From: Alphaproteobacteria bacterium
GTDB lineage: Bacteria; Pseudomonadota; Alphaproteobacteria; RF32; CAG-239
DNA length: 64,000 nucleotides
Reading direction: 5' to 3'
NCBI GenBank assembly: GCA_017471705.1
Contig: JAFUSH010000052.1
Coordinates: forward strand, 14,869-78,868
Part shown: in pieces, positions 5,105-44,681 of the stretch
Position numbering within the stretch: position 1 is the stretch's first letter
Layout: every line of letters begins with the position of its first letter
The notes under the pieces: generated by a model
The model's input: only the letters and a program-made list of their open reading frames with translations
The model's database searches: none
Told to the model about the DNA's origin: nothing
Position numbers and translations under genes: made by a program

Positions 5105-5107
5105 GCA

Positions 5108-8070: not shown

Positions 8071-8076
8071 AAAACT

Positions 8077-8106
8077 TGTGGATAAATCCACGCGTTTTGT
8101 GGATAA
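8077..8106 (-). promoter_or_regulatory. Two perfect DnaA boxes (TTATCCACA) in direct orientation, 21 bp apart
   Basis: TGTGGATAA at 8077-8085 and 8098-8106 on the top strand. Both are embedded in the identical 12-mer TTGTGGATAAAT. Confidence 0.65.
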
Positions 8107-8345
8107 ATGCTTGTCACATAAACGCGCCTTTGCGGACAAGCCTGCCGGCTTACCCTTGCAAAGACTGCGTTATACAAGCATTTTAGAGATGATTGCAGAA
8201 AAATCTGCAATCATTGGTGCGCAAGTTGAAACTTGCTTATTGCGCCTATCGGCGCAGGCTCGGCAAGGGAAAGGAGCGCGTTTTTGGCTTTGTGCAGCAA
8301 TTTCTGTCTATTTTTTAGTTGCAAGTGTTGTATGGGAGGTTAGGA

Positions 8346-8921: not shown

Positions 8922-8954
8922 AGGCCACTCAATTTTTGAGCGGCCTTTTTGTTT
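8922..8954 (+). terminator. Strong intrinsic terminator upstream of terS
   Basis: AGGCCACTCAA-ttt-TTGAGCGGCCT (11 bp, one mismatch) followed by TTTTTGTTT. Confidence 0.75.
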
Positions 8955-8999
8955 GGTGTAACACTGAACAATGACCCTGCGATGGGTTAAGCTCCAAAG

Positions 9000-9034
9000 G
9001 CTATGCGCTCTCAACCGGCGCATAGCTTTCTTGT
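9000..9034 (+). terminator. Second hairpin with T-rich tail immediately before the terS start
   Basis: GCTATGCGC (9000-9008) pairs with GCGCATAGC (9018-9026), followed by TTTCTTGT. Confidence 0.45.
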
Positions 9035-9562
9035 ATGGTGAATGAAATGGCAAAGGAAAAGAGAACAGTAAAGGCAAAAAAATCAGTTGGCCGTCCGAAA
9101 GTGAAATGGAAGAGCAAGGCAAACGCTGATAGAATTTTTGCGCTCATGCAAGATGGAAAGAGCTTACGGCAGATTTGCAGAGAGAATGGTTGGCCACATA
9201 GCACCGTGCTTGCTTGGTTGAATAGTGAGTTTTCTGACCAATACACGCAAGCGCAGGAGCGACGCGCGGATTATTACTTTGAAGAAATACTTGAAATTGC
9301 TGACAGTTGTCCGGCTGATAAGGAGGAAGTGGCTGCAGCCAAGTTAAGAATTGATACACGCAAGTGGATTATGGGGCGCATGAGCCCAAAAAAATACAGC
9401 GACAGGGTTAATGTTGATATGAGTGGCGAAACAAAGGTGACGCATGACGGAACAGTTGAATTTACCCCGACAGATATGGCAATATCGCGTCTTGATGAAA
9501 TCATTGGCCGCGTTGTCGGGACAGGAAAAGATACAAGCATGGAGGACACTAGCAAAGAATGA
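9035..9562 (+). CDS. terS: terminase small subunit
   Basis: N-terminal HTH (SLRQICRENGWPHSTVLAWL) followed by ...AAAKLRIDTRKWIMGRMSPKKYSDR, typical of terS families. Directly upstream of terL. Confidence 0.8.
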   Translation: MVNEMAKEKRTVKAKKSVGRPKVKWKSKANADRIFALMQDGKSLRQICRENGWPHSTVLAWLNSEFSDQYTQAQERRADYYFEEILEIADSCPADKEEVAAAKLRIDTRKWIMGRMSPKKYSDRVNVDMSGETKVTHDGTVEFTPTDMAISRLDEIIGRVVGTGKDTSMEDTSKE

Positions 9563-16319: not shown

Positions 16320-16970
16320 ATGGTAGCGACTTGCAGAACAGAATTAGATATTTTTAATATGGCAGCTTTAGCACTCGGCGCAAAAAGAAGTATATCAACA
16401 AACGATAAAACGAATATAGCCGAAGAAATGCAGGCCGCTTTTAGGTTGGTGAGAGATAACTTAATAAGATCTTATAATTGGGATTGCTGCCAAAAAGAGG
16501 ACACTTTGGCCTTAAAAGAGGTTAAAGATGGGGAACGTCTGGCGTATGTTTATCAAGTGCCAAGTGATTGCCTGCAAATAATCAGCTTAAATGGAATACA
16601 AACCGGTTATTCAGGGGTTGAACGTGTTGAGTTTTATGATCCTCTTTATAAAATCCGTGGCCATAATTTATTTACAAAACTAAAAGCACCGTTAAAAGTT
16701 GAATATAGCTATCGCAACGAAGATATTACGAGTTATGACGCTTGTTTTTGTAAAGTATTAGCTCTTGATTTAGCTATTGCTGTATGCGATAGAGCAACAA
16801 ACAGCGACAGCAAAAAGGAATCCTTAAAACGTGATCGTCGTGAGGCAATCAATGACGCATTAAGATCTAATGCGCTTGAGATACCGGCACGGCCAAAAAT
16901 TACCGGAAACTGGCTAAAATCAAGACAACGCCAGAATGATCTTTTGTTGGTAAAGAATGCGGAGTTTTAA
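16320..16970 (+). CDS. tail tubular protein A / adaptor (T7 gp11-type)
   Basis: 216 aa. N-terminal ...DIFNMAALALGAKRSIS...AFRLVRDNLIRSYNWDC pattern. Precedes the gp12-type gene. Confidence 0.7.
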   Translation: MVATCRTELDIFNMAALALGAKRSISTNDKTNIAEEMQAAFRLVRDNLIRSYNWDCCQKEDTLALKEVKDGERLAYVYQVPSDCLQIISLNGIQTGYSGVERVEFYDPLYKIRGHNLFTKLKAPLKVEYSYRNEDITSYDACFCKVLALDLAIAVCDRATNSDSKKESLKRDRREAINDALRSNALEIPARPKITGNWLKSRQRQNDLLLVKNAEF

Positions 16971-16973
16971 GAT

Positions 16974-27400: not shown

Positions 27401-30400
27401 GTCGGCAGAGAAAATGAGCTGTCGGTATTTGTGTATAATATCAGCGACAATCTCGATACGCCAAAAAGTAATGATATGGCACTGGAATTATATGCACTTG
27501 ACAAGGGAATTGAGCTTGATCCTTATGAAACGCTACACAGCCAAGAATATCTTGACTGGTATGATGAAAATATTATGGGTAATTCAGAGCCATATTTATG
27601 GACTGAAAATGCTAGTAATACGGACATGGTGGCCAAGAAATTCACGCTTGATAATATCATGAAGATCTTAAAAAAACAGGAACGCGCAGGCGGCGGCTTT
27701 TTAGGTGATCAGGTTTTCAGCGCAAGAAATTTGCTTAACTTTATGGCTAAAAAATATAAAAATCTTGACGAAGTGCGCAAAGATAAGCACAAACTTGTAT
27801 CTGCCGAAGAGCAAAATGCTTTCTTTCAAAAGATTGATGAGAGATTTTGGGATTTGGCCGCAGAGCTTAAACTTGAAGATCGTGACTATAATTACGGCAG
27901 CGATCGCATGGGGTTGGCTGTTGCGGCTATCAATGCGGACAATGGCGATGATGTTATTAAAAAACGCTTAGCCGGATATTATCTTGACACTTCTGACGCA
28001 GCAGTGGCTAAAGTTAAAGAATTTAGCAATATGATGAAAGAGGTATTAACCGATTATTTTGAGGTTAAACCGCGTCGTGTTGTCAATTTTAGTGAGTTTT
28101 CCGGTGTAATTATACCGGAAGGCAAGGAATATGACGACGTGGCCAAGCAGCTTGAGCAGGAATATATTACGGTTGAGCGCGTTAAAAAAGGTGACACCGC
28201 TGATTATGAGCGCGCTTTAATGAATATCCAAGCGAATGCTGAAACAACGTTTTTCCAAAATCAAAAGATTGATATGGAGGCGTTGGGTGCATATACGCCG
28301 GCAGAGCGCAAGATCACTCTTTTCCGCAACAACAATCTTTCAACGCTTATTCATGAAAGCGGCCACTATTGGCTTGATATGTTGCAGCAATTTGCGCAAC
28401 TGCCGACAGCCAGTGAAAAGCTGAAAAATGATTGGGCAACCGTTAAAAATTGGCTCGGCGTTGGCGACGATAACGTGGTCACAGAAGAGCAGCACGAAAA
28501 ATTTGCGCGCGGCGTTGAAAAGTATTTTTTGACACGTAAAGCACCATCTGCCGGCTTAGCCAAAATATTTGACACTTTCCGGCGGTGGCTCGTTTCGGTG
28601 TATAAAGATGTGAAAGAGCTTGACGTTGATTTGAATGATGATGTTGAGCGCGTTTTTGATCACATGCTCGCAAGTGAAAGTGAGATTGAAGAGTATGCAC
28701 AAGCGCAGCAATTTGCCGACATGATGGAGGCAAGCACCAAAGGCTTAAGCAAAGCAGATCTTGAAAAGTATGCAACGCTTACCGAACAGGCAATGACAAT
28801 GGCCAAGGATAAACACTTGACGGATAAGGTGGCTTTAATCCTGAAAGAAGAAACGGAGGCCTACAAAGAAAAGCAGCAGCAGCTTAAAGATCAGGTTTTG
28901 GAAGAGTGGAGCAAGGATAACACAAACAAAGCTGTTTATATTCTGGTGACAGGCGAAGTGCCGCACGGTCACTTAGATATTAAGATCAATACAGAAGAGC
29001 TGCGCAATTTGCTTGGTGAAAACTTTGATAAATATGCGACTTTTGGCGGCCGGCCGATTTTTGCCGATGACGGCATAAGTTTGACTGATTTGCAGGAATT
29101 TACCGGATTAACAAAAGATCAGGTAAAGGCTGCGCTTTTGACAGCGCGGCAGCGTATGCGTAACTTTAAGCAAGCACTACAACGCCGCACGCATGAGGAG
29201 CTTGGCGATCCGGTAACCTATGATGATGTGCAAAAGCAGGTGATTGCTGCTTATTATAACGATAAGCGCGCGCAACTGTTGGATTTGGATCTGAAAAGTT
29301 TGGCCGGCGATAACGCAAAGCGACAAGCTGTATCTACACAAGGCTTTAAGAAGTGGGCAACCGACACAATCAGCCGGATTGCAATTAAAGACTTAAACCC
29401 TGAACAATACAGCAGAGCCATGCAATTTGCCGGTGATAAGGCGATGGCTGCACTTAATCACGGACAGCGTGACTTAGCTTATAGGTTTAAAATTCAGCAG
29501 ATCCGCAATTTTGTGCTGTTTCGTGAGGCTAAAGACAGACAGGCCGAAGTTGAAAGCACACTGCGCCGGTTGAAGCAGATCGGCAAGCAGGAAGTCAACC
29601 ACGATATTGATCAGGTTTATCAAGACGCCGTGCGCGCACTCTTAAGCCGCTTTACTCTCTCCAGAGCCTTAACGCAAAAGGCAAAAGAACGGCTTGGTAA
29701 TTTGAGCGCATGGATCTTGGAGCAACGCAGCAACGGCTATGATATTGTTGTGCCGGCAGATTTGTTGGAGAAAAACAACGGCACAAGCTATGCAGAGCTG
29801 ACGGTTGATGAATTTCTGACACTTGGTGAAAGCGTCAAAAGTTTGGTCACAAACGGCCGCGCAATCAAACAATTTGAGCTTGAGGGTGAACTGATTGAAA
29901 GATCTAAACTTTTGAATGAGTTTGCCGCGCAACTGCGTAAAACATACAAAGGCCGCGATATTCAACGCACCGGTAAAAAACATTTTAAGGGTATATCTGA
30001 AATGCTTGCACCGGCCGACGCAGCAATCGTGATGTTTGGTGATTTATCTAACCGGATTGACGGCTATGACACAAACGGTGTTTTTCACCGGTTATTCTTA
30101 CGGCCGATGACGGAGAGCCAAAACAGAGAAAATGAACTGCTGCGGCTCTACGGTGGCAAGATGAAAGAGCTGCAAGAGGCATTACCGGAATGGGTAAAAA
30201 AGCAGTTGTTTGAGAATGTGGCGGGCGCAAAAGATGTGCTTGGCGCGGATTATACGCGCGGCGAATTGATAAGCATTGCCTTAAATATGGGTAACTTAAG
30301 CAACCTGCAGCGTTTGCAAGACGGTAATGGATTTTCTGACGAACAGCTTGCATGGGTGGCCGGCACGTTAAGTCAAGAAGAATGGGATTATATTCAAGGT

Positions 30401-31996
30401 GTATGGGACACGCTTGAAAGTATGTATCCTATGCTTGCAGAGCACCATAAAAAAATGAGCGGCTTGGACATGGATCATGTTTTAGCCTCTCCGGTGGTCA
30501 CGCCGTATGGTGTTTATAAAGGCGGTTATTTTCCGTTGTTCTACGACAGATCGGCTGAAATAGAGGCGCGACGCAATAACAGTTTAGAGCAAGCACTGCT
30601 TGAAAGTGATTACGGCCGCGCAACAACAAGCGCCGGATATACAAAACAACGTCAAAACATTGTTAAAGAGGCGGTTAAGTTTGATCTTGGATTGATACAG
30701 CGGCATTTAGCAAGCGCAATTCATGATCTGGCTTGGCGCGGTAATATCCGGCAGATGTGGAATATGGCGAATAATCCTGAATTTATGGCCACAATGGACG
30801 GCTATTTACATGAAAGCTATCGGCAGCAGCTTATGAAGTTAATCAAAGATTTGGCAAACTCTACAAACAGAGAGGCTAGAGAGATGACTTTTGCTGAACG
30901 TATGGCGCGCAACATGCGTGTTGCACGCACCACAATCGGCTTAGGCTTTAGGGTTAAGACTGCGGTTAAGCAGCTCACCGGTTTTGCTCAATCTACGGCT
31001 ATTATGAAACGCTACGGCCATAAAAATAAAGGCAAGCACAGCGGCACATATTGGCTCGTTAAAGGCACAAAGGCTTTCGCAAGCGATAAAGCGACACGTG
31101 AATGGTGCTTGGCAAACAGCGGAGAGCTGCGCACGCGCTTGAATAACATGGACGCAAATATTGCGGAGGCCATGAAAGGTGTTGCCTCAAAGCAATCTAA
31201 ACTGCAGAAGATCGATGAAAGCATTTATAATGCCGCCTTTTGGGCAATCGGCAAGGTTGATGTTTTCACTGCAGAGAGCACTTGGTATGGCGCATATTTG
31301 CAGGCAATCAATGACTTTGGCTATAAACATAAGGACGCGGTATTTTATGCCGACAGAGTTATGATTGAAAGTCAAGGCTCCGGTAACCTGAAAGATAAGC
31401 CGGCTATGCAACGCAAAAACGAATGGGAAAAAATGTTTTTGATGTTTTACTCACCGTTTAGCGGTATGTATGGCTTATGGACTTCGGTCATGCGTGACAT
31501 ACGCGATGGTAAAGAACGCAGCAAAGCACTTGCTGATTTGGCGGTGGCTATGTGTCTGCCGGCTTGGCTTGACGCATTGGTTGACGGTGATCAACCGGAC
31601 GGCGATGATGATTTGGCTGAATGGTTAAAATTCTTCTTGCTGCGGCCGATAATGTTTTGGGCGTCAACAATGCCGATCACGAGAGATTTAGCAAGCTACT
31701 TTGAATTTGGCCGCGCTCAAGGCTTTTTCGGTGATACATTTAAGGCAATAGCAGATCTGCCGAAAGTTATCACAAGCGATAAATGGACAGCCGGCAAGCG
31801 TGTTAATACAGTGATGAACGCAACAGCGCAAATTGCCGGCACGCTCGGATATAATATACCGATCGGAGGACAGCTCGCTGACTGGACGCAATGGCTGACA
31901 GATGTGGCCGCCGGTAATATCAAAATCGAAAGTCCTATGAATGTGATCTGGGGCGTTTGGCGTGGTAAAGACGGCAAGCCGCAAGATAAAAAATAA
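21446..31996 (+). CDS. giant polyvalent internal virion / ejection protein (3516 aa; T7 gp16 slot)
   Basis: Single uninterrupted ORF. ATG at 21446 follows a GGAGAAAATAAA RBS region and the previous stop. Gly-zipper hydrophobic block at ~22189-22340. ParB-like ...NYPQELQPRDRSR...VAVGNGRAMAI at ~23935-24325. Zincin motifs HEVQH (25469-25483) and HESGH (28352-28366). Confidence 0.85.
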   Translation: MGVFDEIKQQEQQSLNTSDQASDQAAAPVLTENVFAPVATDSQTMKDNQIQVFSRDWRQQSDDDMEQHIAAGFIKREDADPVRWKSAIETAKGLGYDEKSYDLIYDDLPEYQKQWKEKELRRYYDNCDTMKNMCITDKNFLNTLDDKTAKDLYDINFNLAVYGQPNEPNAVWAFGQRVAYQTGRSEKSIQTGKLAGNIRGKRGDERAAAIAAWRKEHDQLIRMPEIDTSGYGVEDFVMAAADQLPIMARTTGAVVGGTLAGGAAGAGVGSAVPVVGTAAGGVAGAKAGWVAGNALAAYESYQIEANSMTESLLDITDKDGLPLEDWVVDGASYAYGAIAAAIELVPMKAVTNTIPGMKNITKVGIKQALKEAVKDKTKRQVIMQIIKDYGLAVAGESAEEAAQQFTQAEFTRGAKALMNALYDTSFEQQSFANDLAESAEAAIQAGKATAVMAGASSATRVRPELRTWQRDQEAKQLKRGQEVKAQYDAQRMDEVAEAAQSYMQKPSAERATLKKYMQQAKNSSVYQDIYMSADDARAVMISEAVQKNKAALQESGLYDDIERQIEQADQLGTPVRIAFETFGSEIMASQELYAAFKDVIKTYENGITMQELRVEAEQRQQVRNNIEKAAKDNASDYEYAYQYILEQEVAGGIDQQRRGYTAEMLAKVMTYMAKETKQPINEVMAKYAPSFERSFDGSVGGGQTVQDIISTIRKSAQDKEVQNLMKRAGELGKRDARKIAKILGKHLDNAAAGDVQQFMRVVNAIGDMKLNIEAMTDEDIANSLDSYTKSGDVQLNIKRDDADRVKSGIFSASEKALSDIQANGQDSDYVVVGGGRIPVQYQIVELNNMITSHDDAGAVNENYPQELQPRDRSRSASDTQIASIVNNFAPERVGQAEIATEGAPIVTPEGFVAVGNGRAMAIRQVYKNAEKAQAYKDYLAGKGYDLNGFEQPVLVRRLAIEMNNEQLKALVDDANTAGTMQYSDSENALRDADKMSGNLLDLLDMEADIDSAANRRFLNAFFAEVVPTAERNAYLDKDDKITRKGVERVENAIVAKLLPDARMLSILVENPDNNIRKVTKELAKAAPAIISFENDIAAGRINADYSIAGDVTGAVDLLKRAKDRNVTAAEFIAMRDMFEEPISSSTQNMVQLFEKSTGATDFLNKIRSYIRQAGEQGDMSQDNMFGMQPVSKTELLDNLARQESLFQFAGVKAQTAAMDQLEQAKRLEAQGVDAEQIRQQTGWFKGADGKYRFEISDKDLSIGEKYHSAKWRSEHLVYAGLSHNLDGIIKHDKLFAAYPHLRKLQVEFSFQLPEGVLGNYEDNRITLSNKMDQSQTLSVLMHEVQHAIQEYENFARGGNSNTIAEQIEYYKEVIRRYNTSADAVELENAIDNYEFIGDVINTIEVSEKPEKVMKKAWYREHVFGTPRGKAAKAFLQEKAQNYIDDLRDKYKAAGNVVYMDYLDILQNGNMNDLKKQYKSIQARIKRLREKAFPKEYTAAHEWIARFEDGKLSSQELYKRLAGEIEARNTQARLNMTEEERKATSPESTQDVKNADAIVVFDDGTAMDYEPKTQRKGHKVHSVFDLRVGDKTAIGDVQEINAENRTIKINDKLHSMLMLDTQIQYKGLTVYDSQEQKEVVDMPEEQTPADVKKATGDLSVIKEQKKHNTEYNKAAIEYFGLTNKLSETGYILTDGNLLDLSGKNFGGSPNIRSLDHRDVLKPLEPWHAKMEEFINSGNIRYLPEGDKLLMSNMPTPAQLKVIERIIDKTGGNITIELMGDANRWGMNKNDFYNEYTNTSFNQVKRDINAFYKGDGVREITRYYQKTPVTNAKIAKLQEGLQQWEKYLAEVVEPNKYGWYADAVEDNRKNAKRKIAQFKKEIKKEQEKAAVPVGEKLYATHNMSLAGVKGALNLGGLAMPSLALRKVSQGNINQFGDIVFVANEKMVEPSRTTDIFDRDAWTPSIANSMRYELLPSGNTFIKNVLAKVGRENELSVFVYNISDNLDTPKSNDMALELYALDKGIELDPYETLHSQEYLDWYDENIMGNSEPYLWTENASNTDMVAKKFTLDNIMKILKKQERAGGGFLGDQVFSARNLLNFMAKKYKNLDEVRKDKHKLVSAEEQNAFFQKIDERFWDLAAELKLEDRDYNYGSDRMGLAVAAINADNGDDVIKKRLAGYYLDTSDAAVAKVKEFSNMMKEVLTDYFEVKPRRVVNFSEFSGVIIPEGKEYDDVAKQLEQEYITVERVKKGDTADYERALMNIQANAETTFFQNQKIDMEALGAYTPAERKITLFRNNNLSTLIHESGHYWLDMLQQFAQLPTASEKLKNDWATVKNWLGVGDDNVVTEEQHEKFARGVEKYFLTRKAPSAGLAKIFDTFRRWLVSVYKDVKELDVDLNDDVERVFDHMLASESEIEEYAQAQQFADMMEASTKGLSKADLEKYATLTEQAMTMAKDKHLTDKVALILKEETEAYKEKQQQLKDQVLEEWSKDNTNKAVYILVTGEVPHGHLDIKINTEELRNLLGENFDKYATFGGRPIFADDGISLTDLQEFTGLTKDQVKAALLTARQRMRNFKQALQRRTHEELGDPVTYDDVQKQVIAAYYNDKRAQLLDLDLKSLAGDNAKRQAVSTQGFKKWATDTISRIAIKDLNPEQYSRAMQFAGDKAMAALNHGQRDLAYRFKIQQIRNFVLFREAKDRQAEVESTLRRLKQIGKQEVNHDIDQVYQDAVRALLSRFTLSRALTQKAKERLGNLSAWILEQRSNGYDIVVPADLLEKNNGTSYAELTVDEFLTLGESVKSLVTNGRAIKQFELEGELIERSKLLNEFAAQLRKTYKGRDIQRTGKKHFKGISEMLAPADAAIVMFGDLSNRIDGYDTNGVFHRLFLRPMTESQNRENELLRLYGGKMKELQEALPEWVKKQLFENVAGAKDVLGADYTRGELISIALNMGNLSNLQRLQDGNGFSDEQLAWVAGTLSQEEWDYIQGVWDTLESMYPMLAEHHKKMSGLDMDHVLASPVVTPYGVYKGGYFPLFYDRSAEIEARRNNSLEQALLESDYGRATTSAGYTKQRQNIVKEAVKFDLGLIQRHLASAIHDLAWRGNIRQMWNMANNPEFMATMDGYLHESYRQQLMKLIKDLANSTNREAREMTFAERMARNMRVARTTIGLGFRVKTAVKQLTGFAQSTAIMKRYGHKNKGKHSGTYWLVKGTKAFASDKATREWCLANSGELRTRLNNMDANIAEAMKGVASKQSKLQKIDESIYNAAFWAIGKVDVFTAESTWYGAYLQAINDFGYKHKDAVFYADRVMIESQGSGNLKDKPAMQRKNEWEKMFLMFYSPFSGMYGLWTSVMRDIRDGKERSKALADLAVAMCLPAWLDALVDGDQPDGDDDLAEWLKFFLLRPIMFWASTMPITRDLASYFEFGRAQGFFGDTFKAIADLPKVITSDKWTAGKRVNTVMNATAQIAGTLGYNIPIGGQLADWTQWLTDVAAGNIKIESPMNVIWGVWRGKDGKPQDKK

Positions 31997-32082
31997 AGTT
32001 TTCTCCTTGTTTATTATTATGAATTTTGTTGAACAACAGGGCGGTGGTGACACTGCCCTATTTTATTGAAAGGTAAAAAAAT

Positions 32083-34764
32083 ATGACTATTCCTGCAAGT
32101 ATGCCGGCAAAGGCCACCTATCTGGGTGATGGGGTAACGGTTAATTTTCCGGTGCCATTTATATATTTTGAAAATACCGACGGAACAAAGCAAATAAAAG
32201 TTATTCTTGCCGATGAAAATGGTGAAAATGAAGTTGTGCAGGTAGAAAATACCGACTTCACAATCACCGACGCCGGCCAAAGTAACGGAACATTAACGAT
32301 GTTAAGCGCGCCGCCGGAAGACTATATTTTAACAATCGCTTATGATATACCGGTTGAACAACTCGTTGATTGGGAGGAGTTCGGTCGCTTACCAAGCGAA
32401 AGTATAGAGGCTGCGGTTGATAAAATAACGGCAATTATAAAACAAATTTATGAAATATTGGGGCGTTGCGTTAAGGTAACAATAAGCGGCAAACAAACCC
32501 CGGAAGAGTTGCTTGCTACAGTTTATGAAAAATTAGACAGTGCAAGTGCGATTGCGGCGCAGGCAATCACTGCTGCTGATAATGCCACAACAGCGGCTAA
32601 CAATGCAACCGCGGCGGTGGCAAGTGCAGAGCAAACGCTTGAAAATGTTACAGCTTATGTTGACGCGGCAGAGGAAGAGATAAGAGAGATTAAAGCCGCA
32701 GCTGAAAGTGAGATTGACACTAAGGTTACAACCGCAAAAGGTGAGATTGACGGTGCAATATCCAGTGCTATTGAGGACGTTGAGGCGGCAGCTATTGCGG
32801 CGGCTCAAGAAGTTATTGACAGTGCGGCTGAAAGCGCAACGGAAACAGCTAAAGCAAATCTTGACACTTATGTTGATGAAACAGTTGAGCCAAGTTTGCA
32901 GTCGTTTGTTGACGCGGCGCAGGCACAAGCCGGTAGTGCGTCATCTTCTGCCTCGTCTGCGGCACAAACTTTAAGCACTATTCAAACAACAGCCGCGCAG
33001 TTTGATACGAATTATACAACAAAACTTTCGGCATTTAATCAGAACGCAACGGATAAGACAACAGCTTTTAACAGCAATGCGTCTGACAAAACAACGGCGT
33101 TTAATGATAATGCGGCGGCTAAACAAGCTCTTATTGACACAAGTGCAACCGCGGCACAAAACGCGGCAAGTGCGGCGGCAACAAGTGAAACAAACAGCGC
33201 AAATTCAGAAGAAAATGCGTATAAATCGGAATTGAAAGCGGCGGCTTATGCTGAACGCGTTAGAAGTGAGGGAATCCCTATGAGCATTATTGAAAACAAA
33301 AAAATTGAAATATCCGGCAATACGGTAAAACTTTACTGGCGCGATCCGCGTGACACGATTATTGACGGCTTTGTCTTATCGTCTTGGAAAAGCACAACGA
33401 TTGTGAAAAAACAAGGTAGTGAGCCGGAAGATATTGACGACGGCGATATTGTCGCAATCGTGACAACGCGCAATCAATACGCAAATACACCGCTTGAAGA
33501 TACACAAGCAAACGCAGAGCAATGGCATTACCGTGCATTTCCTTTATCGGTTAATGGCGTTTATTCGCTTGATAAGCGCAACATTTTCGGCACGGTGCTA
33601 TATGGGTATAGGATAAACAATGTTGATGGTGTGCCGTCATCTAAAGTTGAATATTTGCCATATTGCGATAACTACTTTTATGATCCGTGTGTTATGGATT
33701 TTCTCGGTGATAAATTTAACTGGGGTGACTGGGAAAAAGCCTTTTTTATCCCTAAACCTTGCTTGTTATCAACCGCCGGAACGGTTACATATTACCTTTC
33801 AAAGGATAACTTTAACTATCGTGAGGACGGCGTTACGGCAAGTGATGTGTCCAATTCAGGCGTAAATGGTAATTTTATGTGTGAGTTTCCGTCTATCTTT
33901 GTTAAGGTATGGGAAGAAAAGAACTATATCAACGTGCTTGTATCAAACAAAAAACTTGATGACGATTTTGAATGTTGGGCAACCAAAAAATCTGACGGCA
34001 CTTATGCTGATAACTTTTATTTACCGATGTTTGAGGGAACAAGTATCAATAATGTTATGCGCTCTATTGCCACAAACGGCAAACCTACAGGAAGCTTAAA
34101 CGCAGAAACAGAGGCGACACACGCAACCGCAAACGGCACCGGTTGGAACACAACCACTTGGGCAGATGAAATGCTTATGATGTTGCTGTTTCCGCTGTTG
34201 TTTAAGTCAACAGACAGTCAAACGGTGTTAGGATATGGTGGCTCAAGTTCTTCAAGCGCGCTGACGGTTAATAATAATGCCGCACTTGATAAGGGTTTGA
34301 TGTATGGCACAAGCGCTGGCAGTGCCTATGGTATGACTTATTTAGGCTTACATAACTGGTGGGGGCATAGGTGGCGCCGTCCTAACGGTTTAATGAATGA
34401 TAACGGCAATTATAAATTTAAGCTGACACATAGCACAGTGGACGGCTCAACCGTTACCGGTTATAATCGGAGCGGCAACGGCTATATTTCAAGCGGTGTT
34501 AGACCGCCGGAGGCAAGCGGTAGTTATATCAATTATTATCAGCCTATCGGTAAATTTGGTATAGTGCCAAAGCTGACAAGCGGCTCAAGCACAACACACT
34601 ATTGCGATGGTATGTGGACGAATAACGGACAACTGGATCAGCTTTTTCTCGGTGGCTCTGTTAATTACGGTGCTCTCTGTGGCGTTTTCGCGTTTAATGT
34701 TTACAACCTACCTTCGAACACTTATTGGTACTTCGGCGCGTCGCTCTCTTATCATCACCTTTAA
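32083..34764 (+). CDS. tail fibre / receptor-binding protein with C-terminal DGR variable region
   Basis: N-terminus ATYLGDGVTVNFPVPFIYF is like the T7-type fibre N-domain. An Ala/Thr-rich coiled shaft follows. The C-terminal ...GGSVNYGALCGVFAFNVYNLPSNTYWYFGASL pattern resembles C-type-lectin-fold VR sequences. Occupies the gp17 slot. Confidence 0.85.
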   Translation: MTIPASMPAKATYLGDGVTVNFPVPFIYFENTDGTKQIKVILADENGENEVVQVENTDFTITDAGQSNGTLTMLSAPPEDYILTIAYDIPVEQLVDWEEFGRLPSESIEAAVDKITAIIKQIYEILGRCVKVTISGKQTPEELLATVYEKLDSASAIAAQAITAADNATTAANNATAAVASAEQTLENVTAYVDAAEEEIREIKAAAESEIDTKVTTAKGEIDGAISSAIEDVEAAAIAAAQEVIDSAAESATETAKANLDTYVDETVEPSLQSFVDAAQAQAGSASSSASSAAQTLSTIQTTAAQFDTNYTTKLSAFNQNATDKTTAFNSNASDKTTAFNDNAAAKQALIDTSATAAQNAASAAATSETNSANSEENAYKSELKAAAYAERVRSEGIPMSIIENKKIEISGNTVKLYWRDPRDTIIDGFVLSSWKSTTIVKKQGSEPEDIDDGDIVAIVTTRNQYANTPLEDTQANAEQWHYRAFPLSVNGVYSLDKRNIFGTVLYGYRINNVDGVPSSKVEYLPYCDNYFYDPCVMDFLGDKFNWGDWEKAFFIPKPCLLSTAGTVTYYLSKDNFNYREDGVTASDVSNSGVNGNFMCEFPSIFVKVWEEKNYINVLVSNKKLDDDFECWATKKSDGTYADNFYLPMFEGTSINNVMRSIATNGKPTGSLNAETEATHATANGTGWNTTTWADEMLMMLLFPLLFKSTDSQTVLGYGGSSSSSALTVNNNAALDKGLMYGTSAGSAYGMTYLGLHNWWGHRWRRPNGLMNDNGNYKFKLTHSTVDGSTVTGYNRSGNGYISSGVRPPEASGSYINYYQPIGKFGIVPKLTSGSSTTHYCDGMWTNNGQLDQLFLGGSVNYGALCGVFAFNVYNLPSNTYWYFGASLSYHHL
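33031..33129 (+). repeat. Three tandem 33-nt (11-aa) repeats within the fibre shaft
   Basis: AFNQNATDKTT / AFNSNASDKTT / AFNDNAAAKQA, with synonymous differences between units. Confidence 0.7.
34641..34746 (+). repeat. DGR variable repeat (VR)
   Basis: Ungapped 106-bp alignment to 34929-35034 with 12 mismatches. Eleven of these lie opposite TR adenines. Confidence 0.9.
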
Positions 34765-34773
34765 GGGGGTTGC

Positions 34774-34795
34774 AAAGGGGGATTTCTCCCCCTTT
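34774..34795 (+). promoter_or_regulatory. GC-rich hairpin downstream of VR (DGR target-recognition element candidate)
   Basis: AAAGGGGGA-tttc-TCCCCCTTT, a perfect 9-bp stem with a 4-nt loop, 28 nt after the VR end. No T tract follows. Confidence 0.6.
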
Positions 34796-34928
34796 AGCAT
34801 TAAGCTCGGCGTTAGCCGAATCGTTTAAAATATTATTATGGAGTGCAACGAAAATTTAACCTTTTGTTGTATAAAAGATAAACGGGATTGTGTGGGCGAC
34901 CTGTCGGGCGCTGTTTTTCCCTTTTCGG

Positions 34929-35034
34929 GCTTATTCTCGGTGGCAATGTTAATAACGGTGCTATCTGTGGCGTTTTCGCGTTTAATGTTAACAACCTACC
35001 TACGAACACGAATTGGAACAACGGCGCGTCGCTC
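34929..35034 (+). repeat. DGR template repeat (TR)
   Basis: Adenine-rich invariant copy. In the VR frame it reads LILGGNVNNGAICGVFAFNVNNLPTNTNWNNGASL, with many AAC/AAT codons. Lies 124 nt upstream of the RT gene. Confidence 0.9.
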
Positions 35035-35157
35035 AACCTTATAGGTAAAAGTTCTCTATAATGCCCTATCAATTCCTTGCTAGGTATGGCAAAAATAACG
35101 CTGAAAAAGGCACGGATTAGTAGGTAATCGCTGAATACCCGTGAAGCTATAAGAGAG

Positions 35158-36291
35158 ATGAAAACATACAACGGATTGTTTGAAAAAATTGTTGATGAGA
35201 AAAATATCCAAAAGGCTATATTAAAAGCCTCTCTCGGCAAACGTAAAAAGTCAAGCGTCCGGCGCACGTTATCTCACTTAACCGAAGTGGCGCACGATTT
35301 AAGCGAACAGCTTAAAAATGGAACGTGGCGACCGTTGGATATACACCAAACCACGCAAATAAATGACGGCGTGGAGCTTAAAAAGCGGTATATCGTATGT
35401 CCGAATTTTGCACGTGAGCAATGCGTCCATCACGCTATTATGAATATTTGTGAGCCATTATTCAGAAAAAAGTTTTATAAATATAGTTGCGGCAGTGTCA
35501 AAGGGCGCGGCGGCGACCAAGCAAAGAAGTATATTGCAAAAATTATTAGGAAATATCCGGCGAAAACAAAGTATGTAGCAAAACTTGATATTAAAAAATT
35601 TTTTCATAATGTTAAGCCAAGCTATGTATTTCACGAGATACGCCGAACAATCCGCGATAAAAGAGTGTTGTGGTTGTTTGCTCTTATCCTACGTGCCAAT
35701 AAGCAAATTATTGACGGCGTGACAGTTAAGGGTGGTATTCCTATCGGCTTTTATACAAGTCCTATTTTTGCAAATATTTTACTTAACGCTTTAGATCACT
35801 ACATAAAAGAGGTTTTAGGCGTTGAGTTTTATGTCCGCTATATGGACGATATTGTTATGTTTAGCCCGAATAAGCGCAAACTTAAAAAGGCGTGTCTTGC
35901 AATACAAGGTTATATTGAGGCTCGTAAAATGAAACTCAAACCGACGTGGCAGATACACCGCTTTAGGAGTGTTAATTTTATCGGGTATCAATTCAAACGC
36001 GGTGGGCAAGTCCGGCTTAGAGATAGAGTATTTTTGAAATCTATCCGGCTGATCCGGCGCGTTTCTCGCAAAACAAAGCTGACGATATATGATTGCCTCC
36101 GTGTATTAAGTTATATGGGGCGATTTAAGGCGGCGCATACATACGCCGCATTTAAGTTGCACATTTCGCCGTATGTTAATATCAGGGAATTACGCAAGCG
36201 CGTATCTCGGCACGATAAAAAGTTAAACCAGTTAGAAAAAGAAAGGAAAGCTAATGCAATACAGGAAAGCGGAAAGCCGGCAACAGCCTAA
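35158..36291 (+). CDS. DGR reverse transcriptase
   Basis: RT motifs KRYIVCPNFAREQCVHHAI, SCGSVKGRG, LDIKKFFHNV, GIPIGFYTSPIFANILLNALDHYI and YVRYMDDIVMF (YMDD at 35839-35850). Adjacent to TR/VR. Confidence 0.9.
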   Translation: MKTYNGLFEKIVDEKNIQKAILKASLGKRKKSSVRRTLSHLTEVAHDLSEQLKNGTWRPLDIHQTTQINDGVELKKRYIVCPNFAREQCVHHAIMNICEPLFRKKFYKYSCGSVKGRGGDQAKKYIAKIIRKYPAKTKYVAKLDIKKFFHNVKPSYVFHEIRRTIRDKRVLWLFALILRANKQIIDGVTVKGGIPIGFYTSPIFANILLNALDHYIKEVLGVEFYVRYMDDIVMFSPNKRKLKKACLAIQGYIEARKMKLKPTWQIHRFRSVNFIGYQFKRGGQVRLRDRVFLKSIRLIRRVSRKTKLTIYDCLRVLSYMGRFKAAHTYAAFKLHISPYVNIRELRKRVSRHDKKLNQLEKERKANAIQESGKPATA

Positions 36292-36520
36292 AGAAATTGA
36301 ACAGGCAACCGCCGGACGTTATTATATCCGAAAAAATATCAAAAAAGAAAGCCGCACCGATGAAAAAGGAGCGGCTTTTGATTTATGGGTTTATGATGAG
36401 GCGGTGGCAAGTGAGGCAGAATATGCCGCATACTTGGCAATACAGGGCGCGGAGTTGCGCCGTGAGGCTGAAATCGTGGACGACTACACACTGCAACTTA
36501 TTGAGGAGGGCACACTATGA
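36254..36520 (+). CDS. hypothetical acidic protein (88 aa) preceding the XkdX-like gene
   Basis: ATGA overlap with the next gene. Overlaps the RT 3' end by 38 nt. C-terminus is ...EIVDDYTLQLIEEGTL. Confidence 0.5.
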   Translation: MQYRKAESRQQPKEIEQATAGRYYIRKNIKKESRTDEKGAAFDLWVYDEAVASEAEYAAYLAIQGAELRREAEIVDDYTLQLIEEGTL

Positions 36521-36660
36521 GAGTGATTGTTGAGAGCTTAAAACGTCTTTATGAACAAGGGCGATTAACAAAAGAGCAAGTTATGGAGCGTGTTGAAAAA
36601 GGCACAATTACCATAGACGAATATCATTATATTGTCGGAGATGAAGAACAAGGGGCATAA
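36517..36660 (+). CDS. XkdX-family small phage protein (47 aa)
   Basis: MRVIVESLKRLYEQGRLTKEQVMERVEKGTITIDEYHYIVGDE matches the XkdX pattern (Y..G.xTKEQV...V.KG.IT.EY..I.G). Not in the ORF track (under 60 aa). A hairpin follows at 36649-36669. Confidence 0.65.
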   Translation: MRVIVESLKRLYEQGRLTKEQVMERVEKGTITIDEYHYIVGDEEQGA

Positions 36661-36789
36661 AGCCCCTTGCACTCCGGACGTTTTTGTTTATATGTAGAAA
36701 GATTAAGATTGTAAAACAAAAATAAATATATTATTCTTTAGGTGAGCTTAATGAGTGGGGTCATTGTTTGCTTTTAAGGAATGTAAACA

Positions 36790-37227
36790 ATGACTAAAGA
36801 AAGAGATATTGATACGTTGGCGCGCACGCTTTATGGTGAGGCGCGTGGGGAGGACAGGCAAGGCAAAATCGCTGTTGCCTGCGTTGTTTTAAATAGGGTA
36901 AAAAAGCGAATTATGGCCGGTTATCGGATTATTAGCGGTATGAAAGTGCCGACGATTGACGCAACCTGCCTGAAACCGTGGCAATTTTCTTGTTGGAATG
37001 ACAACGATCCGAATAAAAAAATTATTCAAAATGTTGATTTGGCAAATAAACGCTTTGCGGAATGCTATGAAATTGCAACACTGGCCGTTAACGGAGGGCT
37101 TGAGGATATAACAAAAGGCGCAACGCATTATTATAACCCAAAGGCCTGCAATCAGCCAAAGTGGGCAAAAGGCAAAACGCCATGTGTAGTGCTTGGCCAT
37201 CATCTTTTCTTTAACAATATAGATTAA
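36790..37227 (+). CDS. endolysin, SleB-type cell-wall hydrolase (Hydrolase_2)
   Basis: LARTLYGEARGE...IAVACVVLNRV...PWQFSCWN motif series. First gene of the lysis cassette. Confidence 0.8.
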   Translation: MTKERDIDTLARTLYGEARGEDRQGKIAVACVVLNRVKKRIMAGYRIISGMKVPTIDATCLKPWQFSCWNDNDPNKKIIQNVDLANKRFAECYEIATLAVNGGLEDITKGATHYYNPKACNQPKWAKGKTPCVVLGHHLFFNNID

Positions 37228-37239
37228 GAGGGCGATGGT

Positions 37240-37587
37240 ATGCTGAAAGCAATAAAAGATTTAATTTTGGAGTTCGGATTGATCGGGTTAATTTTCGGCA
37301 CATTGTCGGTGGTCTGGTCAAAAGAGCCATTATCGCCGGCTGATAAAATCAAAAAGGTTGTTGCCTCAATTACATTAAGCCTAATTATCGGTAGTATTTG
37401 TATGGGAATTGGCGTCAATGAATATCTGACTTTTGCGATCATAGGCGGTGGTTGCAGTTTTGCTAGAGAATTTTTTGACGTATTAACTAACCTTTTAAAA
37501 TTGTTGGCCGACAAACCGCTAAACACGATCAAGCAACTGGTTGATATTATCAGAGGGGTGCGTCATGACAAAGGCCAAGATAATTGA
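37240..37587 (+). CDS. holin (3 predicted TM segments)
   Basis: Hydrophobic segments LILEFGLIGLIFGTLSVVW, VVASITLSLIIGSICMGIGV and LTFAIIGGGCSFA with a charged C-terminus. Lies between the endolysin and the spanins. Confidence 0.6.
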   Translation: MLKAIKDLILEFGLIGLIFGTLSVVWSKEPLSPADKIKKVVASITLSLIIGSICMGIGVNEYLTFAIIGGGCSFAREFFDVLTNLLKLLADKPLNTIKQLVDIIRGVRHDKGQDN

Positions 37588-37831
37588 TTTAATATTGCGC
37601 TGCGTGCTGATTATTATAGCCGTCGGTGCATTTTTCTTATGGAGCAATCACCAAGTTGAAAAACGTGTTAAAGCTGAATGTGAGCTGAAAGCGGTGCAAC
37701 AGGTGGTAATTACAACAGAGGCAAAGCAAAAGGAGGTTGAAGATGTGGCAAAGGCTAAGGCTGTTATTCATAGTAGGCCTAACGCTAACCGCGACAGCTT
37801 GCTCAACGCAATGCGTAACGGTGCATTATGA
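37565..37831 (+). CDS. i-spanin (Rz-like)
   Basis: N-terminal TM LILRCVLIIIAVGAFFLW followed by a coiled-coil periplasmic domain. Overlaps the o-spanin gene. Confidence 0.65.
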   Translation: MTKAKIIDLILRCVLIIIAVGAFFLWSNHQVEKRVKAECELKAVQQVVITTEAKQKEVEDVAKAKAVIHSRPNANRDSLLNAMRNGAL

Positions 37832-37973
37832 TTTTTGTCCGGTCTATCCGGTGGCCGGTAAAGCGGTGGCTGACGAATTAGAAAACGCCAGTATTGACGA
37901 CTATCCGGCAACATGGGAGTGGATCGGCCGAATTGATAAATTAAGGCAGGAGCTTGAAATATGTCAAAAGTAA
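37737..37973 (+). CDS. o-spanin (Rz1-like outer-membrane lipoprotein), overlapped architecture
   Basis: Signal peptide MKMWQRLRLLFIVGLTLTATA-C with a lipobox-like TATAC. Starts in a different frame inside the i-spanin 3' end and extends beyond it. Confidence 0.6.
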   Translation: MKMWQRLRLLFIVGLTLTATACSTQCVTVHYDFCPVYPVAGKAVADELENASIDDYPATWEWIGRIDKLRQELEICQK

Positions 37974-38167
37974 ATGTTTGGATTTATTGGCCTAACCGGA
38001 GGCAAAAGGTCGATCCTGAATTGTGCTATACGCCACAAGGGCAATCTTTTCATGAGTGGCAACGCGATCAGGAGGAGGCTTATCAATATAAAGTTGAGCT
38101 GATTAAGCGCAAACTTGAGGCGGCCAGAAAACCGAACAAGCATTTTGTGGAGGATTATTGGCGATGA
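37961..38167 (+). CDS. hypothetical protein (68 aa)
   Basis: ORF overlapping the o-spanin stop. Confidence 0.45.
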   Translation: MSKVNVWIYWPNRRQKVDPELCYTPQGQSFHEWQRDQEEAYQYKVELIKRKLEAARKPNKHFVEDYWR

Positions 38168-38514
38168 AAGAAGAAAGGATCCCTTTCCCTGACTATCCAC
38201 CGGAAGAGCAGGAAAAAGACGCGCAACGCGCAAAGCAAATAAAAATGATACGGCACGCATACCTTATGAAAATCAGTGGCGAATGGGCGCATTTTATAAT
38301 AAGCCAAGGTGGTGAGAATATAGACTTTTATGAGGATATGAAACTGCCGGAAGTTTGCGCAAAATTAAAGCGTAAATTTCCCGATTATCAGCCGCGCGTG
38401 ATTATGAATGAGGGGCTTGAGAATTATTTGCGTGATCAAAGGCCTAGAATTATGCGCGGCCGTAACAAACAATTAACAATTAACTTTAACGGAGGGCAAA
38501 ATAATGAGCGATAA
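38164..38514 (+). CDS. hypothetical protein (116 aa)
   Basis: ATG at 38164 lies 9 nt after GGAGG. The ORF-track start at 38158 is a TTG too close to the RBS. Confidence 0.5.
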   Translation: MKEERIPFPDYPPEEQEKDAQRAKQIKMIRHAYLMKISGEWAHFIISQGGENIDFYEDMKLPEVCAKLKRKFPDYQPRVIMNEGLENYLRDQRPRIMRGRNKQLTINFNGGQNNER

Positions 38515-38722
38515 TATTGAGTTGAAAGACGAAGAACGGCAAAAATGTGAGATTTGGACACGTGTCATGGGTTATCATCGGCCGGTGTCTGAATTTAACA
38601 AAGGCAAGAAGTCTGAATATTACAGCCGCAAGTGTTTTACGGAGGCAAATGCGGTGGCCGGAATTGAAAAAATAGAGGTTCAGGCCTCTTCTGATTGTGG
38701 CTGTTCAATAGCAGCTGAATAG
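38504..38722 (+). CDS. stand-alone NrdD-type glycyl-radical domain protein (72 aa)
   Basis: CEIWTRVMGYHRPVSEFNKGKKSEYYSRKCF matches the C-terminal glycyl-radical segment of class III ribonucleotide reductases (R-x-x-G-Y ... N-x-G-K-x-x-E ... R). Confidence 0.6.
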   Translation: MSDNIELKDEERQKCEIWTRVMGYHRPVSEFNKGKKSEYYSRKCFTEANAVAGIEKIEVQASSDCGCSIAAE

Positions 38723-39933
38723 TCTGGTATGGCGTTGATGGTTTCACTTAAAAGTGGCAGCGGATTTTCTAAACAGTTGACAGCGCTATCAAATTTGTTT
38801 GGCGCAAGGTGCATATATCGCTTAGTCATTTCAAGCGTAGCGTGCCCCATTAGCTCACTGATAGTGTTAATATCAACGCCGTCCATTGCAAGCCATGACG
38901 CAAAAGTATGGCGCAGCGTATGAAAAACAACCTTATTGCGGTCATCAGTAATGTCTTTGTTAAATAATTCATCAACAATGCGTTGATATTGATCTGAAAT
39001 AGTATTTACATGTTCAGATCTGTCTGCTTTCATAAATAGATAATCATTAGGTTTAAGGTCTGCACAGCGGCGTTTGAGCATATCAAAAACAATTTGCGTT
39101 AATGGTAATGCACGATTAACAACCCCTTTAGGATCACGAACATAGAGCCTGCGCGCGGTAAAGTTAATATCTACAGCTTGTAATTTGCATATTTCACCGG
39201 CACGCAAGCCGCAACATAAAGCAAGCAGTGACATATCAAAAACAGTGCTTGTCGGCATTTTACTTAATCTTTCAAATAGTATTGCGGCCTCTTCTCTTGA
39301 TAAAAAACGGATTCGGCGATTATCTATTTTAAGTTTTTTGACTTTTGAGGCCGGATTGTCACCGGCAAAATATTCATTATTTTTAGCCATATTAAATACA
39401 TGGCCGATATAAATTAAAATCTTATTAACGCTTGACGGCGCAAGGCCGGCGGTAATCATATTTGCTTTAATTGTTTCAAGATGTATAGGCTTTATATCCA
39501 CAAGACGCATATCGCCAATCACCGGCAAAATATGGTTATTATGCGCGCCGACTTTCCCCTCTTTAGGTTTATTCTCGTCAATATAGCTAGGTTTGTAAAC
39601 TTCTTCAAAAAATTGCCGGTATGTAATATTTTCTCTTTCTTGAATTGCTGCAGCGGTGGCCTCGGCTTTTTTCTTAGCCTCGGCCATTTCTGCTTTTTCT
39701 TTTAAGCTGAAATAACCGGAGCCGTTTTTAATGTTGTTGCGAATAATTTCTATTTCTGCAGCAGCCTTTGCCTCTGTATATCCGGCACTTTCCCACCCAA
39801 AACCCTCTTCACGCTGCTTGCCGTTGACGGTGTAGCGTAAATAAAAATATCTATCCTTACGGATCTGTCCGTTTTTGCGTGTTGGGTGTTCACGATAATA
39901 AACGCCGCGTATTTTTGTTTTTACTCTATCCAT
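38680..39933 (-). CDS. int: tyrosine integrase
   Basis: C-terminal HTLRHTFASWLAMDGVDINTISELMGHATLEMTKRYMHL (R..H-x-x-R..Y catalytic signature). N-terminal arm-binding-type domain. Adjacent to the tRNA. Confidence 0.9.
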   Translation of the reverse strand: MDRVKTKIRGVYYREHPTRKNGQIRKDRYFYLRYTVNGKQREEGFGWESAGYTEAKAAAEIEIIRNNIKNGSGYFSLKEKAEMAEAKKKAEATAAAIQERENITYRQFFEEVYKPSYIDENKPKEGKVGAHNNHILPVIGDMRLVDIKPIHLETIKANMITAGLAPSSVNKILIYIGHVFNMAKNNEYFAGDNPASKVKKLKIDNRRIRFLSREEAAILFERLSKMPTSTVFDMSLLALCCGLRAGEICKLQAVDINFTARRLYVRDPKGVVNRALPLTQIVFDMLKRRCADLKPNDYLFMKADRSEHVNTISDQYQRIVDELFNKDITDDRNKVVFHTLRHTFASWLAMDGVDINTISELMGHATLEMTKRYMHLAPNKFDSAVNCLENPLPLLSETINAIPDYSAAIEQPQSEEA

Positions 39934-44130: not shown

Positions 44131-44220
44131 AATGGTTCTCCATAAATTTTGTTAAGGCAAACGCGCCGATAATAATAGCCACGCCTGCAACAATAATGAT
44201 TGTGTTAATTGACAATGATT

Positions 44221-44681
44221 TTACTCCCTTGCTGTGATGTCTTTTTTGAAATAAATGATGACAGTGCCGGAATTATTACCTTTGGCCGCTCTACCGGTAG
44301 CCGGATCCACAAAGCTAACTCTGCCGGATAAAATCTCGTAAAAGAATTTTTTGTAAATGTATTGATGGAAAGCGCGGCAGTCTGTGCAATTTGAGGGCAA
44401 TACCATGACGACAATGGCACAATCGCCGTTGATGACTTCATCATAAGCTTTGGCGATAAAAGCGGCTTTTTGGCTGAATGGTGGATTACAAAAGACACGT
44501 TCCCCCCCCCCCATGAGGTTTGCAGGGCGTTAATACCCTGATCAAAATACAAGCCGCGTGGTGCTTTGCAGTTGGCGGTGGTGCAAGCAGCGTCAAGTGT
44601 GAAATTAAAAACACGATCAAGCTGCCGATAAAGAAAATCCGGTGTTTCAAAGCCGTCGTTACCTTTAACATTCATCTTCAT
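44221..44681 (-). pseudogene. Dam-family N6-adenine methyltransferase with poly-G(11) tract (OFF state, different wrong frame)
   Basis: C run 44502-44512 has 11 residues. The N-terminal frame continues as ...SWGGGNVSFVIHH... (158-aa ORF). The catalytic half GGGERVFCNPPFS lies in another frame. Confidence 0.8.

Follow-up and report, generated by a model that had tools for sequence, protein, structure and literature searches.

An active diversity-generating retroelement without Avd in a 42.1-kb phage unit, its spacer RNA, and the acidic protein encoded behind its reverse transcriptase

The DNA analysed in this work, a stretch of 64,000 nucleotides (the window; positions 14869-78868 of contig C42, which is 80,052 nt long), carries a phage diversity-generating retroelement (DGR) whose cassette comprises a tail-fibre target gene (TG) with a variable repeat (VR), a template repeat (TR) and also a reverse transcriptase (RT), and holds no gene for the accessory protein Avd. 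The locus adds a new member, both well defined and active, to the Avd-less DGRs of phages. In our reading, which we hold to be highly probable, it is a complete, currently active DGR of the catalogued Avd-less branch (Architecture A1, lineage-3-like) in a 42.1-kb gut Alphaproteobacteria-type phage, where the RT works with its RNA in the absence of Avd and where the two small genes behind the RT, encoding an acidic protein of 88 residues (p88 hereafter) and a peptide of the XkdX family, make up a fibre-tip module. The DGR is recognised by its adenine-linked VR/TR pair, by a DGR-type RT beside the TR, and by a repeat end resembling the initiation of mutagenic homing (IMH) site with an inverted repeat downstream. 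The parts of the cassette are the following (window coordinates):

32083-34764, plus strand: DGR target gene, a tail-fibre protein of 893 aa (phrog_5302 tail protein, 1.7e-68)
34641-34746, plus strand: VR, 106 nt, allele 2; the last 35 codons of the 893-aa open reading frame (ORF), in direct repeat with the TR
34735-34746, plus strand: GC-rich end of the VR/TR identity, GGCGCGTCGCTC, IMH-like, read from the sequence
34747-34928, plus strand: VR-TR gap, 182 nt, gene-free by the ORF list and family scans
34774-34795, plus strand: hairpin AAAGGGGGA-TTTC-TCCCCCTTT, 9 bp with a 4-nt loop, present after the VR only, read from the sequence
34929-35034, plus strand: TR, 106 nt with 25 adenines, non-coding, direct repeat, identical in both copies of the phage unit
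35078-35157, plus strand: RT-18 RNA motif (Rfam RF03021), found by cmscan in the 3' two thirds of the TR-RT spacer (35035-35157)
35158-36291, plus strand: DGR RT, 377 aa, pI 10.35 (RVT_1, 1e-21; phrog_1423 'Reverse transcriptase', 3e-85)
36254-36520, plus strand: p88, 88 aa, pI 4.78, phrog_20201; candidate fibre chaperone or DGR accessory
36517-36660, plus strand: XkdX-family peptide, 47 aa (PF09693, 6.8e-9, 36.1 bits against a gathering score of 23.5)

Two VR alleles on otherwise identical phage genomes

We take 34641-34746 as the VR and 34929-35034 as the TR because 11 of the 12 differences between the two repeats lie at adenines of the second copy; the remaining one is at a TR G (34722). 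The 11 adenine mismatches fall mostly on positions 1 and 2 of AAC-type codons. The GC-rich end and the hairpin are comparable to the IMH and inverted repeat of BPP-1 (PMC3240598, PMC12875486).

Contig C42 holds 1.9 head-to-tail copies of the phage unit (42,130 and 42,131 nt) and no host flank, and its positions 1-37921 and 42131-80052 are 99.968% identical in a copy-to-copy comparison. The copies differ at 12 places in total, namely 11 substitutions and one change in the length of a homopolymer (C10 or C11). All 11 substitutions are inside the VR, 10 at TR-adenine positions and one at G82 of the TR, and the reading frame is kept by both alleles, that is allele 2 of the window and allele 1 at C42 7379-7484, in the other unit copy to the left of the window. 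Since the copies differ only in the VR and the homopolymer, C42 is an assembly either of two population variants strung together or of a tandem or concatemeric form. The DGR is active, its VR diversifying at TR-adenine positions, because two VR alleles sit on otherwise identical genomes, as ongoing mutagenic retrohoming yields; with two alleles present, the possibility that the element is a relic was rejected. Among relatives with an intact RT, the VR/TR mismatches at adenine sites number 12 of 13, 9 of 9, 17 of 17, 13 of 13 and 11 of 11; in a widespread relative with a deleted RT (L017/L031) the TR has decayed, and 8 of 20 mismatches are at adenines. The deletion in these widespread relatives (L017:5346-6270, L031 and L049) is internal to the RT gene and leaves 35 N-terminal and about 30 C-terminal codons, with the p88 and XkdX genes intact.

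Two of the differences seen on C42 are of another kind. Window position 34722 is T in VR allele 2 and G in both the TR and VR allele 1, a non-adenine change amid an adenine-specific pattern. The homopolymer is a poly-C tract (window 2371 and 44502; C10 in one copy, C11 in the other) within a methyltransferase-like ORF on the minus strand (2091-2540 and 44205-44681); the change in its length shifts the frame of this ORF, which makes the gene a candidate for phase variation.

An Avd-less clade of RTs and its spacer RNA

The first-pass annotation had proposed that no avd gene is present, both intervals around the TR being too short for one. The 182-nt VR-TR gap is indeed too short, and so is the TR-RT spacer, which measures 123 nt rather than the 124 nt first given. 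The ORFs that cross these intervals, 34838-35044 on the plus strand and 34836-35267 on the minus strand, have no credible family match (the first has one noise-level Pfam match, E 0.074), and the plus-strand ORFs 34838-35044 and 34888-35061 are out-of-frame and in-frame readings of the TR, so that their description as TR shadows stands. A six-frame search with PF05635, NF033474 (DivGenRetAVD) and phrog_3206 ('Avd protein of DGR') across the entire assembly found no Avd on C42 at E<=10. A custom hidden Markov model (HMM) of Avd was built from 9 seeds (BPP-1, Pseudomonas phage Bise, Pseudoalteromonas ACA2, Vibrio VP58.5, the host's own Avd, the Faecalibacterium phages Lagaffe, Mushu and Toutatis, and Clostridium phage Saumur); run without filters (--max) on the window's stop-to-stop ORFs of at least 40 aa, its best match was an antisense shadow ORF at E 3.8, and on the genome's ORFs of at least 50 aa it found nothing on C42 at E<=1. 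The positive controls were recovered, i.e. the Avd of another contig of the assembly, C67 (E 4e-20 to 1e-44), and those of BPP-1 and FP_Lagaffe. The HRDC domain (PF00570) is likewise absent from C42, comparison with PHROG gives no Avd-like match for the unit's small basic ORFs, and no MutS-like (MSL) gene flanks the cassette in the Pfam and PHROG scans, MSL not having been searched by HMM. The phage unit thus has neither an Avd nor an HRDC gene, the claimed absence holding under four HMMs throughout its 42.1 kb, and the cassette lacks the Avd gene that defines the BPP-1-type Architecture B (avd-TR-RT).

The RT has a C-terminal tail of about 45 aa, basic and helical, that is common to its own clade. 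It clusters with the RTs of published DGR phages, the closest from isolated phages being those of Butyrivibrio phages Idris and Arawn (35% identity), Lactobacillus phage LBR48 (34%) and Faecalibacterium phage FP_Epona (31%); closer relatives (50-79%) occur in IMG/VR contigs, metagenomes and metagenome-assembled genomes (MAGs) labelled Alphaproteobacteria, Phascolarctobacterium and Bacteroidales, and a megablast of window 30000-39000 against phages gave no match. In a maximum likelihood tree of 40 RTs, built without the reference set of Wu et al., every Avd-linked RT falls in one clade (support 100/99) and the window RT in another clade (99/99), none of whose 24 RTs has an Avd. The closest outgroups of this second clade (LBR48, a Helicobacter canis prophage, Psychrobacillus phage Perkons and Bacteroides phage BX-TP2) are also Avd-less, as is the RT of crAss LMMB, which is weakly placed beside the Avd clade. 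The records of Idris, LBR48, FP_Epona, crAss LMMB and BX-TP2, complete or nearly so, contain no Avd, and neither do three IMG/VR contigs.

The layout of the clade is a fibre C-terminal half with the VR, a gap (98-337 nt), the TR, a spacer (109-148 nt), the RT, an acidic protein of 83-108 aa, and XkdX; a small post-RT gene is present in all the relatives listed, with XkdX after it in most. When the flanks of 17 non-redundant loci are compared, conservation is limited to the fibre C-terminal half, the RT, p88 and XkdX (the last in 16 of the 17 by tblastn), while the fibre N-terminus, the tape measure and the lysis genes vary: the C-terminal half of the target (about residues 401-893) is found in all 17 and its N-terminal part in 4. 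The order TG(VR)-TR-RT on one strand, with neither avd nor HRDC, matches Architecture A1 of Wu et al. 2018. In that survey (PMC5758913) avd was present in 275 of 372 DGRs, the avd-lacking genomes had none elsewhere, Architecture A (TR-RT, no accessory gene) accounted for 75 of the 372, and lineage 3 was described as lacking avd, with Avd-independent retrohoming proposed; crAssphage LMMB, of layout TG-VR-TR-RT, belongs to lineage 3 (PMC7290462). The absence of Avd, judged by the RT tree and these loci, is a lineage trait, and DGRs of this kind form an already documented class. It is not special to this phage, being shared by the whole RT clade.

The Architecture A1/lineage 3 DGRs (PMC5758913), including those of crAssphage LMMB (PMC7290462) and the Hankyphage-type Bacteroides phages, have the same gene order without avd or HRDC, and likewise direct adenine-specific mutagenesis to a VR at the C-terminus of a phage tail-fibre target; the window RT, moreover, stands outside the Avd-linked clade together with the other Avd-less RTs. 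However, the crAss and Bacteroides RTs are only about 28-31% identical to it and have a C-terminal extension of about 100 aa that it lacks, and their DGRs differ from ours, in which p88 and XkdX follow the RT. The DGRs of Idris/Arawn, LBR48 and FP_Epona share the TG-VR-TR-RT layout; the post-RT gene of Idris and FP_Epona is a p88 homologue with XkdX after it, whereas neither was detected in LBR48. The hosts of these four phages are Firmicutes, whereas the window phage encodes spanins and finds its closest kin in Alphaproteobacteria MAGs. BPP-1 (mtd-avd-TR-Sp-brt) resembles our cassette in its fibre C-terminal VR, a TR whose changes are confined to adenines, an IMH-like GC-rich end with a 4-nt-loop hairpin, a structured pre-RT spacer of about 120-145 nt, and a site that closes the tail module, ahead of the lysis genes; it differs in having Avd, in its spacer RNA (Phage_DGR, RF03022, instead of RT-18, RF03021) and in its RT (26% identity).

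The TR-RT spacer is too short for an avd gene, as the first-pass annotation held, but it is not an empty stretch, for the RT-18 RNA of Rfam sits there. The match covers model positions 1-84 of 84 and scores 41.8 bits (E 7.6e-6), the gathering score being 41.3, and its helices lie at 35078-35082/35087-35091 and 35111-35117/35137-35143. An alignment of the spacer in 12 relatives (RT identity 25-79%) has invariant AAUGCC, GAAAAU and AAAGGCACGG...AGUA...CCGUGAGG.AUAAGA; in the two helices 93.8% of the cells are paired and 9 of the 12 pairs show compensatory changes. None of 500 shuffles reached these pairing and covariation values, and the covariation score of the structure is 0.59 against at most 0.1 in slid controls. 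Folded as a single sequence, the spacer does no better than its shuffles (z +1.19), so that the structure is seen by comparison only. RT-18 also stands upstream of the RT in LBR48 and in six further relatives; the spacer RNA of FP_Epona is RT-4 (RF03025) and that of BX-TP2 is RT-3 (RF03068). The motifs RT-1 to RT-19 were described as lying beside RT genes, with their function left open (Weinberg et al. 2017, PMC5737381). Our RNA agrees with the RT-18 of that work in its full-length match, its place directly upstream of an RT gene and its two covarying helices; where the original text says that the motif 'might function as part of' retroelements, it is here placed exactly between the TR and a DGR RT. 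RT-18 sits where BPP-1 has its spacer RNA, which recruits bRT-Avd and supplies the priming adenosine (PMC12875486), and the comparative evidence shows that the spacer is a conserved structured RNA distinct from the Phage_DGR RNA of BPP-1.

The most likely mechanism, we infer, is that the basic RT acts directly on the TR-RT-18 RNA. The strongly basic enzyme (with its clade-specific basic C-terminal tail) would bind its own TR-RT-18 RNA, would prime and make adenine-mutagenised cDNA without an Avd pentamer, and the cDNA would then replace the VR, with the GC-rich IMH-like end, and the hairpin that lies 28 nt downstream, serving as guides. The p88 and XkdX proteins would be a chaperone/assembly pair of the fibre-tip module into which TR-RT was inserted, and would not belong to the reverse-transcription machinery. 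The first-pass annotation had left three options, i.e. an Avd among the unassigned small ORFs, a different accessory factor, or an RT working alone; the last, in the form of an RT with its own RNA, is the best supported, and the second remains for the 88-aa protein only.

The acidic protein and the XkdX peptide behind the RT

The p88 ORF overlaps the 3' end of the RT gene by 38 nt and the start of the XkdX gene by 4 nt. Its family comprises 784 clusters in a collection of 5.8 billion proteins, with pI values of 4.2-4.8. We found no Pfam or NCBIfam match for p88, no match to PF14301 (DUF4376) for any of 18 family members, no tblastn match among phages, and no nucleic-acid-binding signature. An AlphaFold 2 (AF2) model from a 20-sequence alignment (mean confidence, pLDDT, 82.8) places one long helix after four beta-strands, so that p88 is predicted not to be a helical bundle; no relative in the PDB was found by family-profile sequence search, and the best Foldseek match there has E 0.47. 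The view of the first-pass annotation that neither the 88-aa protein nor the XkdX-like peptide resembles Avd stands, p88 having an acidic pI, no Avd HMM match and a non-bundle model.

Several observations concern p88 homologues elsewhere. In Idris (MN882554.2, about 16934-17278; L002:6076-6420) the annotated post-RT gene of 71 aa (locus 6208-6423) seems to start too late, as the p88 HMM match begins at locus position 6076 in the same open frame and overlaps the RT end. In an Anaerobutyricum-type prophage region two p88 homologues (L053:4037-4357 and 8922-9242) flank a serine-recombinase module, and in L052 the homologue is preceded by the C-terminal part of an RT only; these arrangements suggest integration or rearrangement within the RT-p88 region. 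A protein of 115 aa, P0111, belongs to the p88 family and carries the Pfam XkdX domain, and is thus a natural p88-XkdX fusion.

On balance we favour p88 as a fibre-tip chaperone, the TR-RT part having been inserted between the fibre gene and the chaperone gene. We rank this above a substitute for Avd, which we consider unlikely, because p88 is acidic, is kept intact together with XkdX in relatives with a deleted RT and a decayed TR, occurs fused to XkdX, accompanies the fibre C-terminal half throughout the clade, and has a weak link to DUF4376. Proteins of the latter family are tail-fibre chaperones by experiment and are encoded just after fibre genes (PMC7289586, PMC10579305), a position that p88 shares only if TR-RT is counted as an insertion. 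The structural resemblance between p88 and a DUF4376 protein is weak (Foldseek E 0.019, TM score 0.49). The post-RT gene of BX-TP2 encodes a DUF4376 protein which, judging from size and pI only, would be the CH1 of Wu et al. The DUF4376 chaperones (such as gp27 of Alteromonas phage V22) and CH1 are, like p88, small acidic proteins encoded just after a fibre gene or DGR; p88 itself has no Pfam DUF4376 match, and HHalign of its family against the BX-TP2 protein is not significant, nor is it against bbp4 of BPP-1 or gp02 of LBR48. A kinship of p88 with the RT C-terminal extensions of about 100 aa in BX-TP2 and crAss LMMB was rejected, HHalign again being not significant; a phmmer search with these extensions found nothing among the window ORFs.

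The alternative is that p88 (phrog_20201) is the lineage's own accessory subunit, doing some of the work of Avd within a complex of RT, RNA and protein, e.g. by holding RNA or cDNA or by bridging to the target. It is the strongest of the rivals, even if we think it rather improbable. In about 25 distinct loci sampled from the family, p88 is always directly behind an RT of the clade, or its remnant, and directly before XkdX, usually overlapping the RT gene (by 14-90 nt), and the RTs linked to it form one clade (99/99). A Foldseek search of its model against viral models returned proteins of 111 and 114 aa from the crAss-like phages cr55_1 and cr50_1 (E 0.02 and 0.11), which are the products of the genes overlapping the 3' end of those phages' DGR RTs. 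Independently of this, HHalign of the p88 family against the crAss post-RT family gave 92.2% (E 5.9e-7) over the N-terminal 53 columns, and an HMM of the crAss family had the p88 ORFs as its next-best matches and no match in any of 8 loci that bear an Avd. An acidic post-RT protein, CH1, has moreover been proposed as an accessory gene of Avd-less Bacteroides DGRs (Wu et al., PMC5758913). Against an accessory role stand the acidity of the family and its missing nucleic-acid-binding signature, a predicted fold of a beta-sheet and one long helix with no significant PDB match, the survival of p88 and XkdX where RT and TR have been lost or have decayed, the fusion of one member to XkdX (which is common in phages without DGRs), its conservation with the fibre C-terminal half as expected of a chaperone, and the weak structural link to the DUF4376 fibre chaperones (PMC7289586).

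Some of these and other results weigh against our overall interpretation. In the roughly 25 loci sampled, p88 has no other place than directly downstream of an RT of the window's clade, which fits a DGR role as well as a fibre role, and the same is true of the recurrence of its N-terminal domain behind the RT in crAss-like DGR phages that have no XkdX. That RT and RNA suffice is our own inference: the DGR biochemistry cited here concerns the bRT-Avd-RNA complex of BPP-1, whose activity is abolished by loss of avd (PMC12875486). Both VR alleles stem from one assembly. Finally, membership of the window RT in lineage 3 of Wu et al. 2018 can only be called likely, because the deep node joining its clade to crAss LMMB, of the published lineage 3, has a support of only 53/84.

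The genes after XkdX encode a SleB-type hydrolase, a holin-like protein, a spanin pair and an integrase. Near the last is an ORF of 72 aa (window 38504-38722) resembling the glycyl-radical C-terminus of NrdD, found with 70-77% identity in 4 of the 17 related loci; the lysis genes between it and the DGR vary among these loci. The DGR-XkdX module is typical of Firmicutes phages, yet it sits here in a phage with a spanin pair (window 36790-37973) whose nearest relatives (L029-L031) are in MAGs labelled Alphaproteobacteria, an indication that the fibre-tip/DGR cassette has moved horizontally between phyla.

Avd from elsewhere and the meaning of the locus

Bona fide Avd genes of the host appear, from the profile matches, to sit on other contigs, inside their own DGRs. 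The 1.8-Mb host assembly contains a canonical DGR on contig C67 (about 3087-7100, on a single strand), with a target of 345 aa having a Cys/Gly-rich body, an Avd of 129 aa (NF033474, 2.5e-20; phrog_3206, 4.7e-28) and an RT. Contig C14 (1-2352; 2.3 kb) carries a 321-aa ORF and a weakly Avd-like ORF of 143 aa (phrog_3206, 1.5e-9), beside what by eye only looks like an RT N-terminus, confirmed by no search; it may be a fragment of a third DGR. One could therefore suppose that Avd is supplied to the phage in trans by its host, the more so as avd, TR and brt of BPP-1 function in trans from a plasmid (PMC5758913). We regard such supply as very unlikely, because the whole RT clade is without Avd in many unrelated hosts (Butyrivibrio, Faecalibacterium, Lactobacillus, Phascolarctobacterium and Alphaproteobacteria, complete genomes of isolated phages included); besides, the genomes of Avd-less DGRs contain no stray avd (Wu et al., PMC5758913), and the C67 RT is distant from the window RT (E 2.8e-20), whereas the binding of bRT to Avd is a specific protein-protein contact. 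Least credible is a highly diverged Avd among the unassigned small basic ORFs (e.g. 7991-8371, 8319-8735 and 38158-38514): Avd sequences are poorly conserved (PMC5758913) and the unit has several unannotated basic ORFs of 95-140 aa, but the four HMMs, which recover the Avds of Bordetella, Vibrio, Pseudomonas, Faecalibacterium and Clostridium phages, find nothing, and in the roughly 5-kb DGR flanks of the 17 related loci four small basic ORFs occur in none and 38158-38514 in one, so that this option of the first-pass annotation was rejected.

That Avd is missing here adds nothing to what is known of its absence. As to how Avd-less DGRs synthesise their cDNA, and whether the post-RT protein has a part in it, a matter to which the E. 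coli reconstitution assays now available for DGRs (PMC12875486) could be applied, the locus offers a compact and demonstrably active example, with the TR, the RT-18 RNA, an RT of 377 aa and an 88-aa partner candidate in about 2 kb from TR to XkdX. Should the less probable view of p88 prove right, the acidic post-RT protein would be a dedicated subunit, hitherto unrecognised, in a large share of Avd-less phage DGRs, working with the RT-18, RT-4 and RT-3 spacer RNAs in place of the Avd pentamer; this doubtful but consequential reading rests on p88, on the N-terminal domain that it has in common with the crAss-like post-RT proteins, and possibly on the N-terminus of the Bacteroides DUF4376/CH1 protein. 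Tools for targeted mutagenesis, too, could profit from a minimal DGR that is free of Avd.

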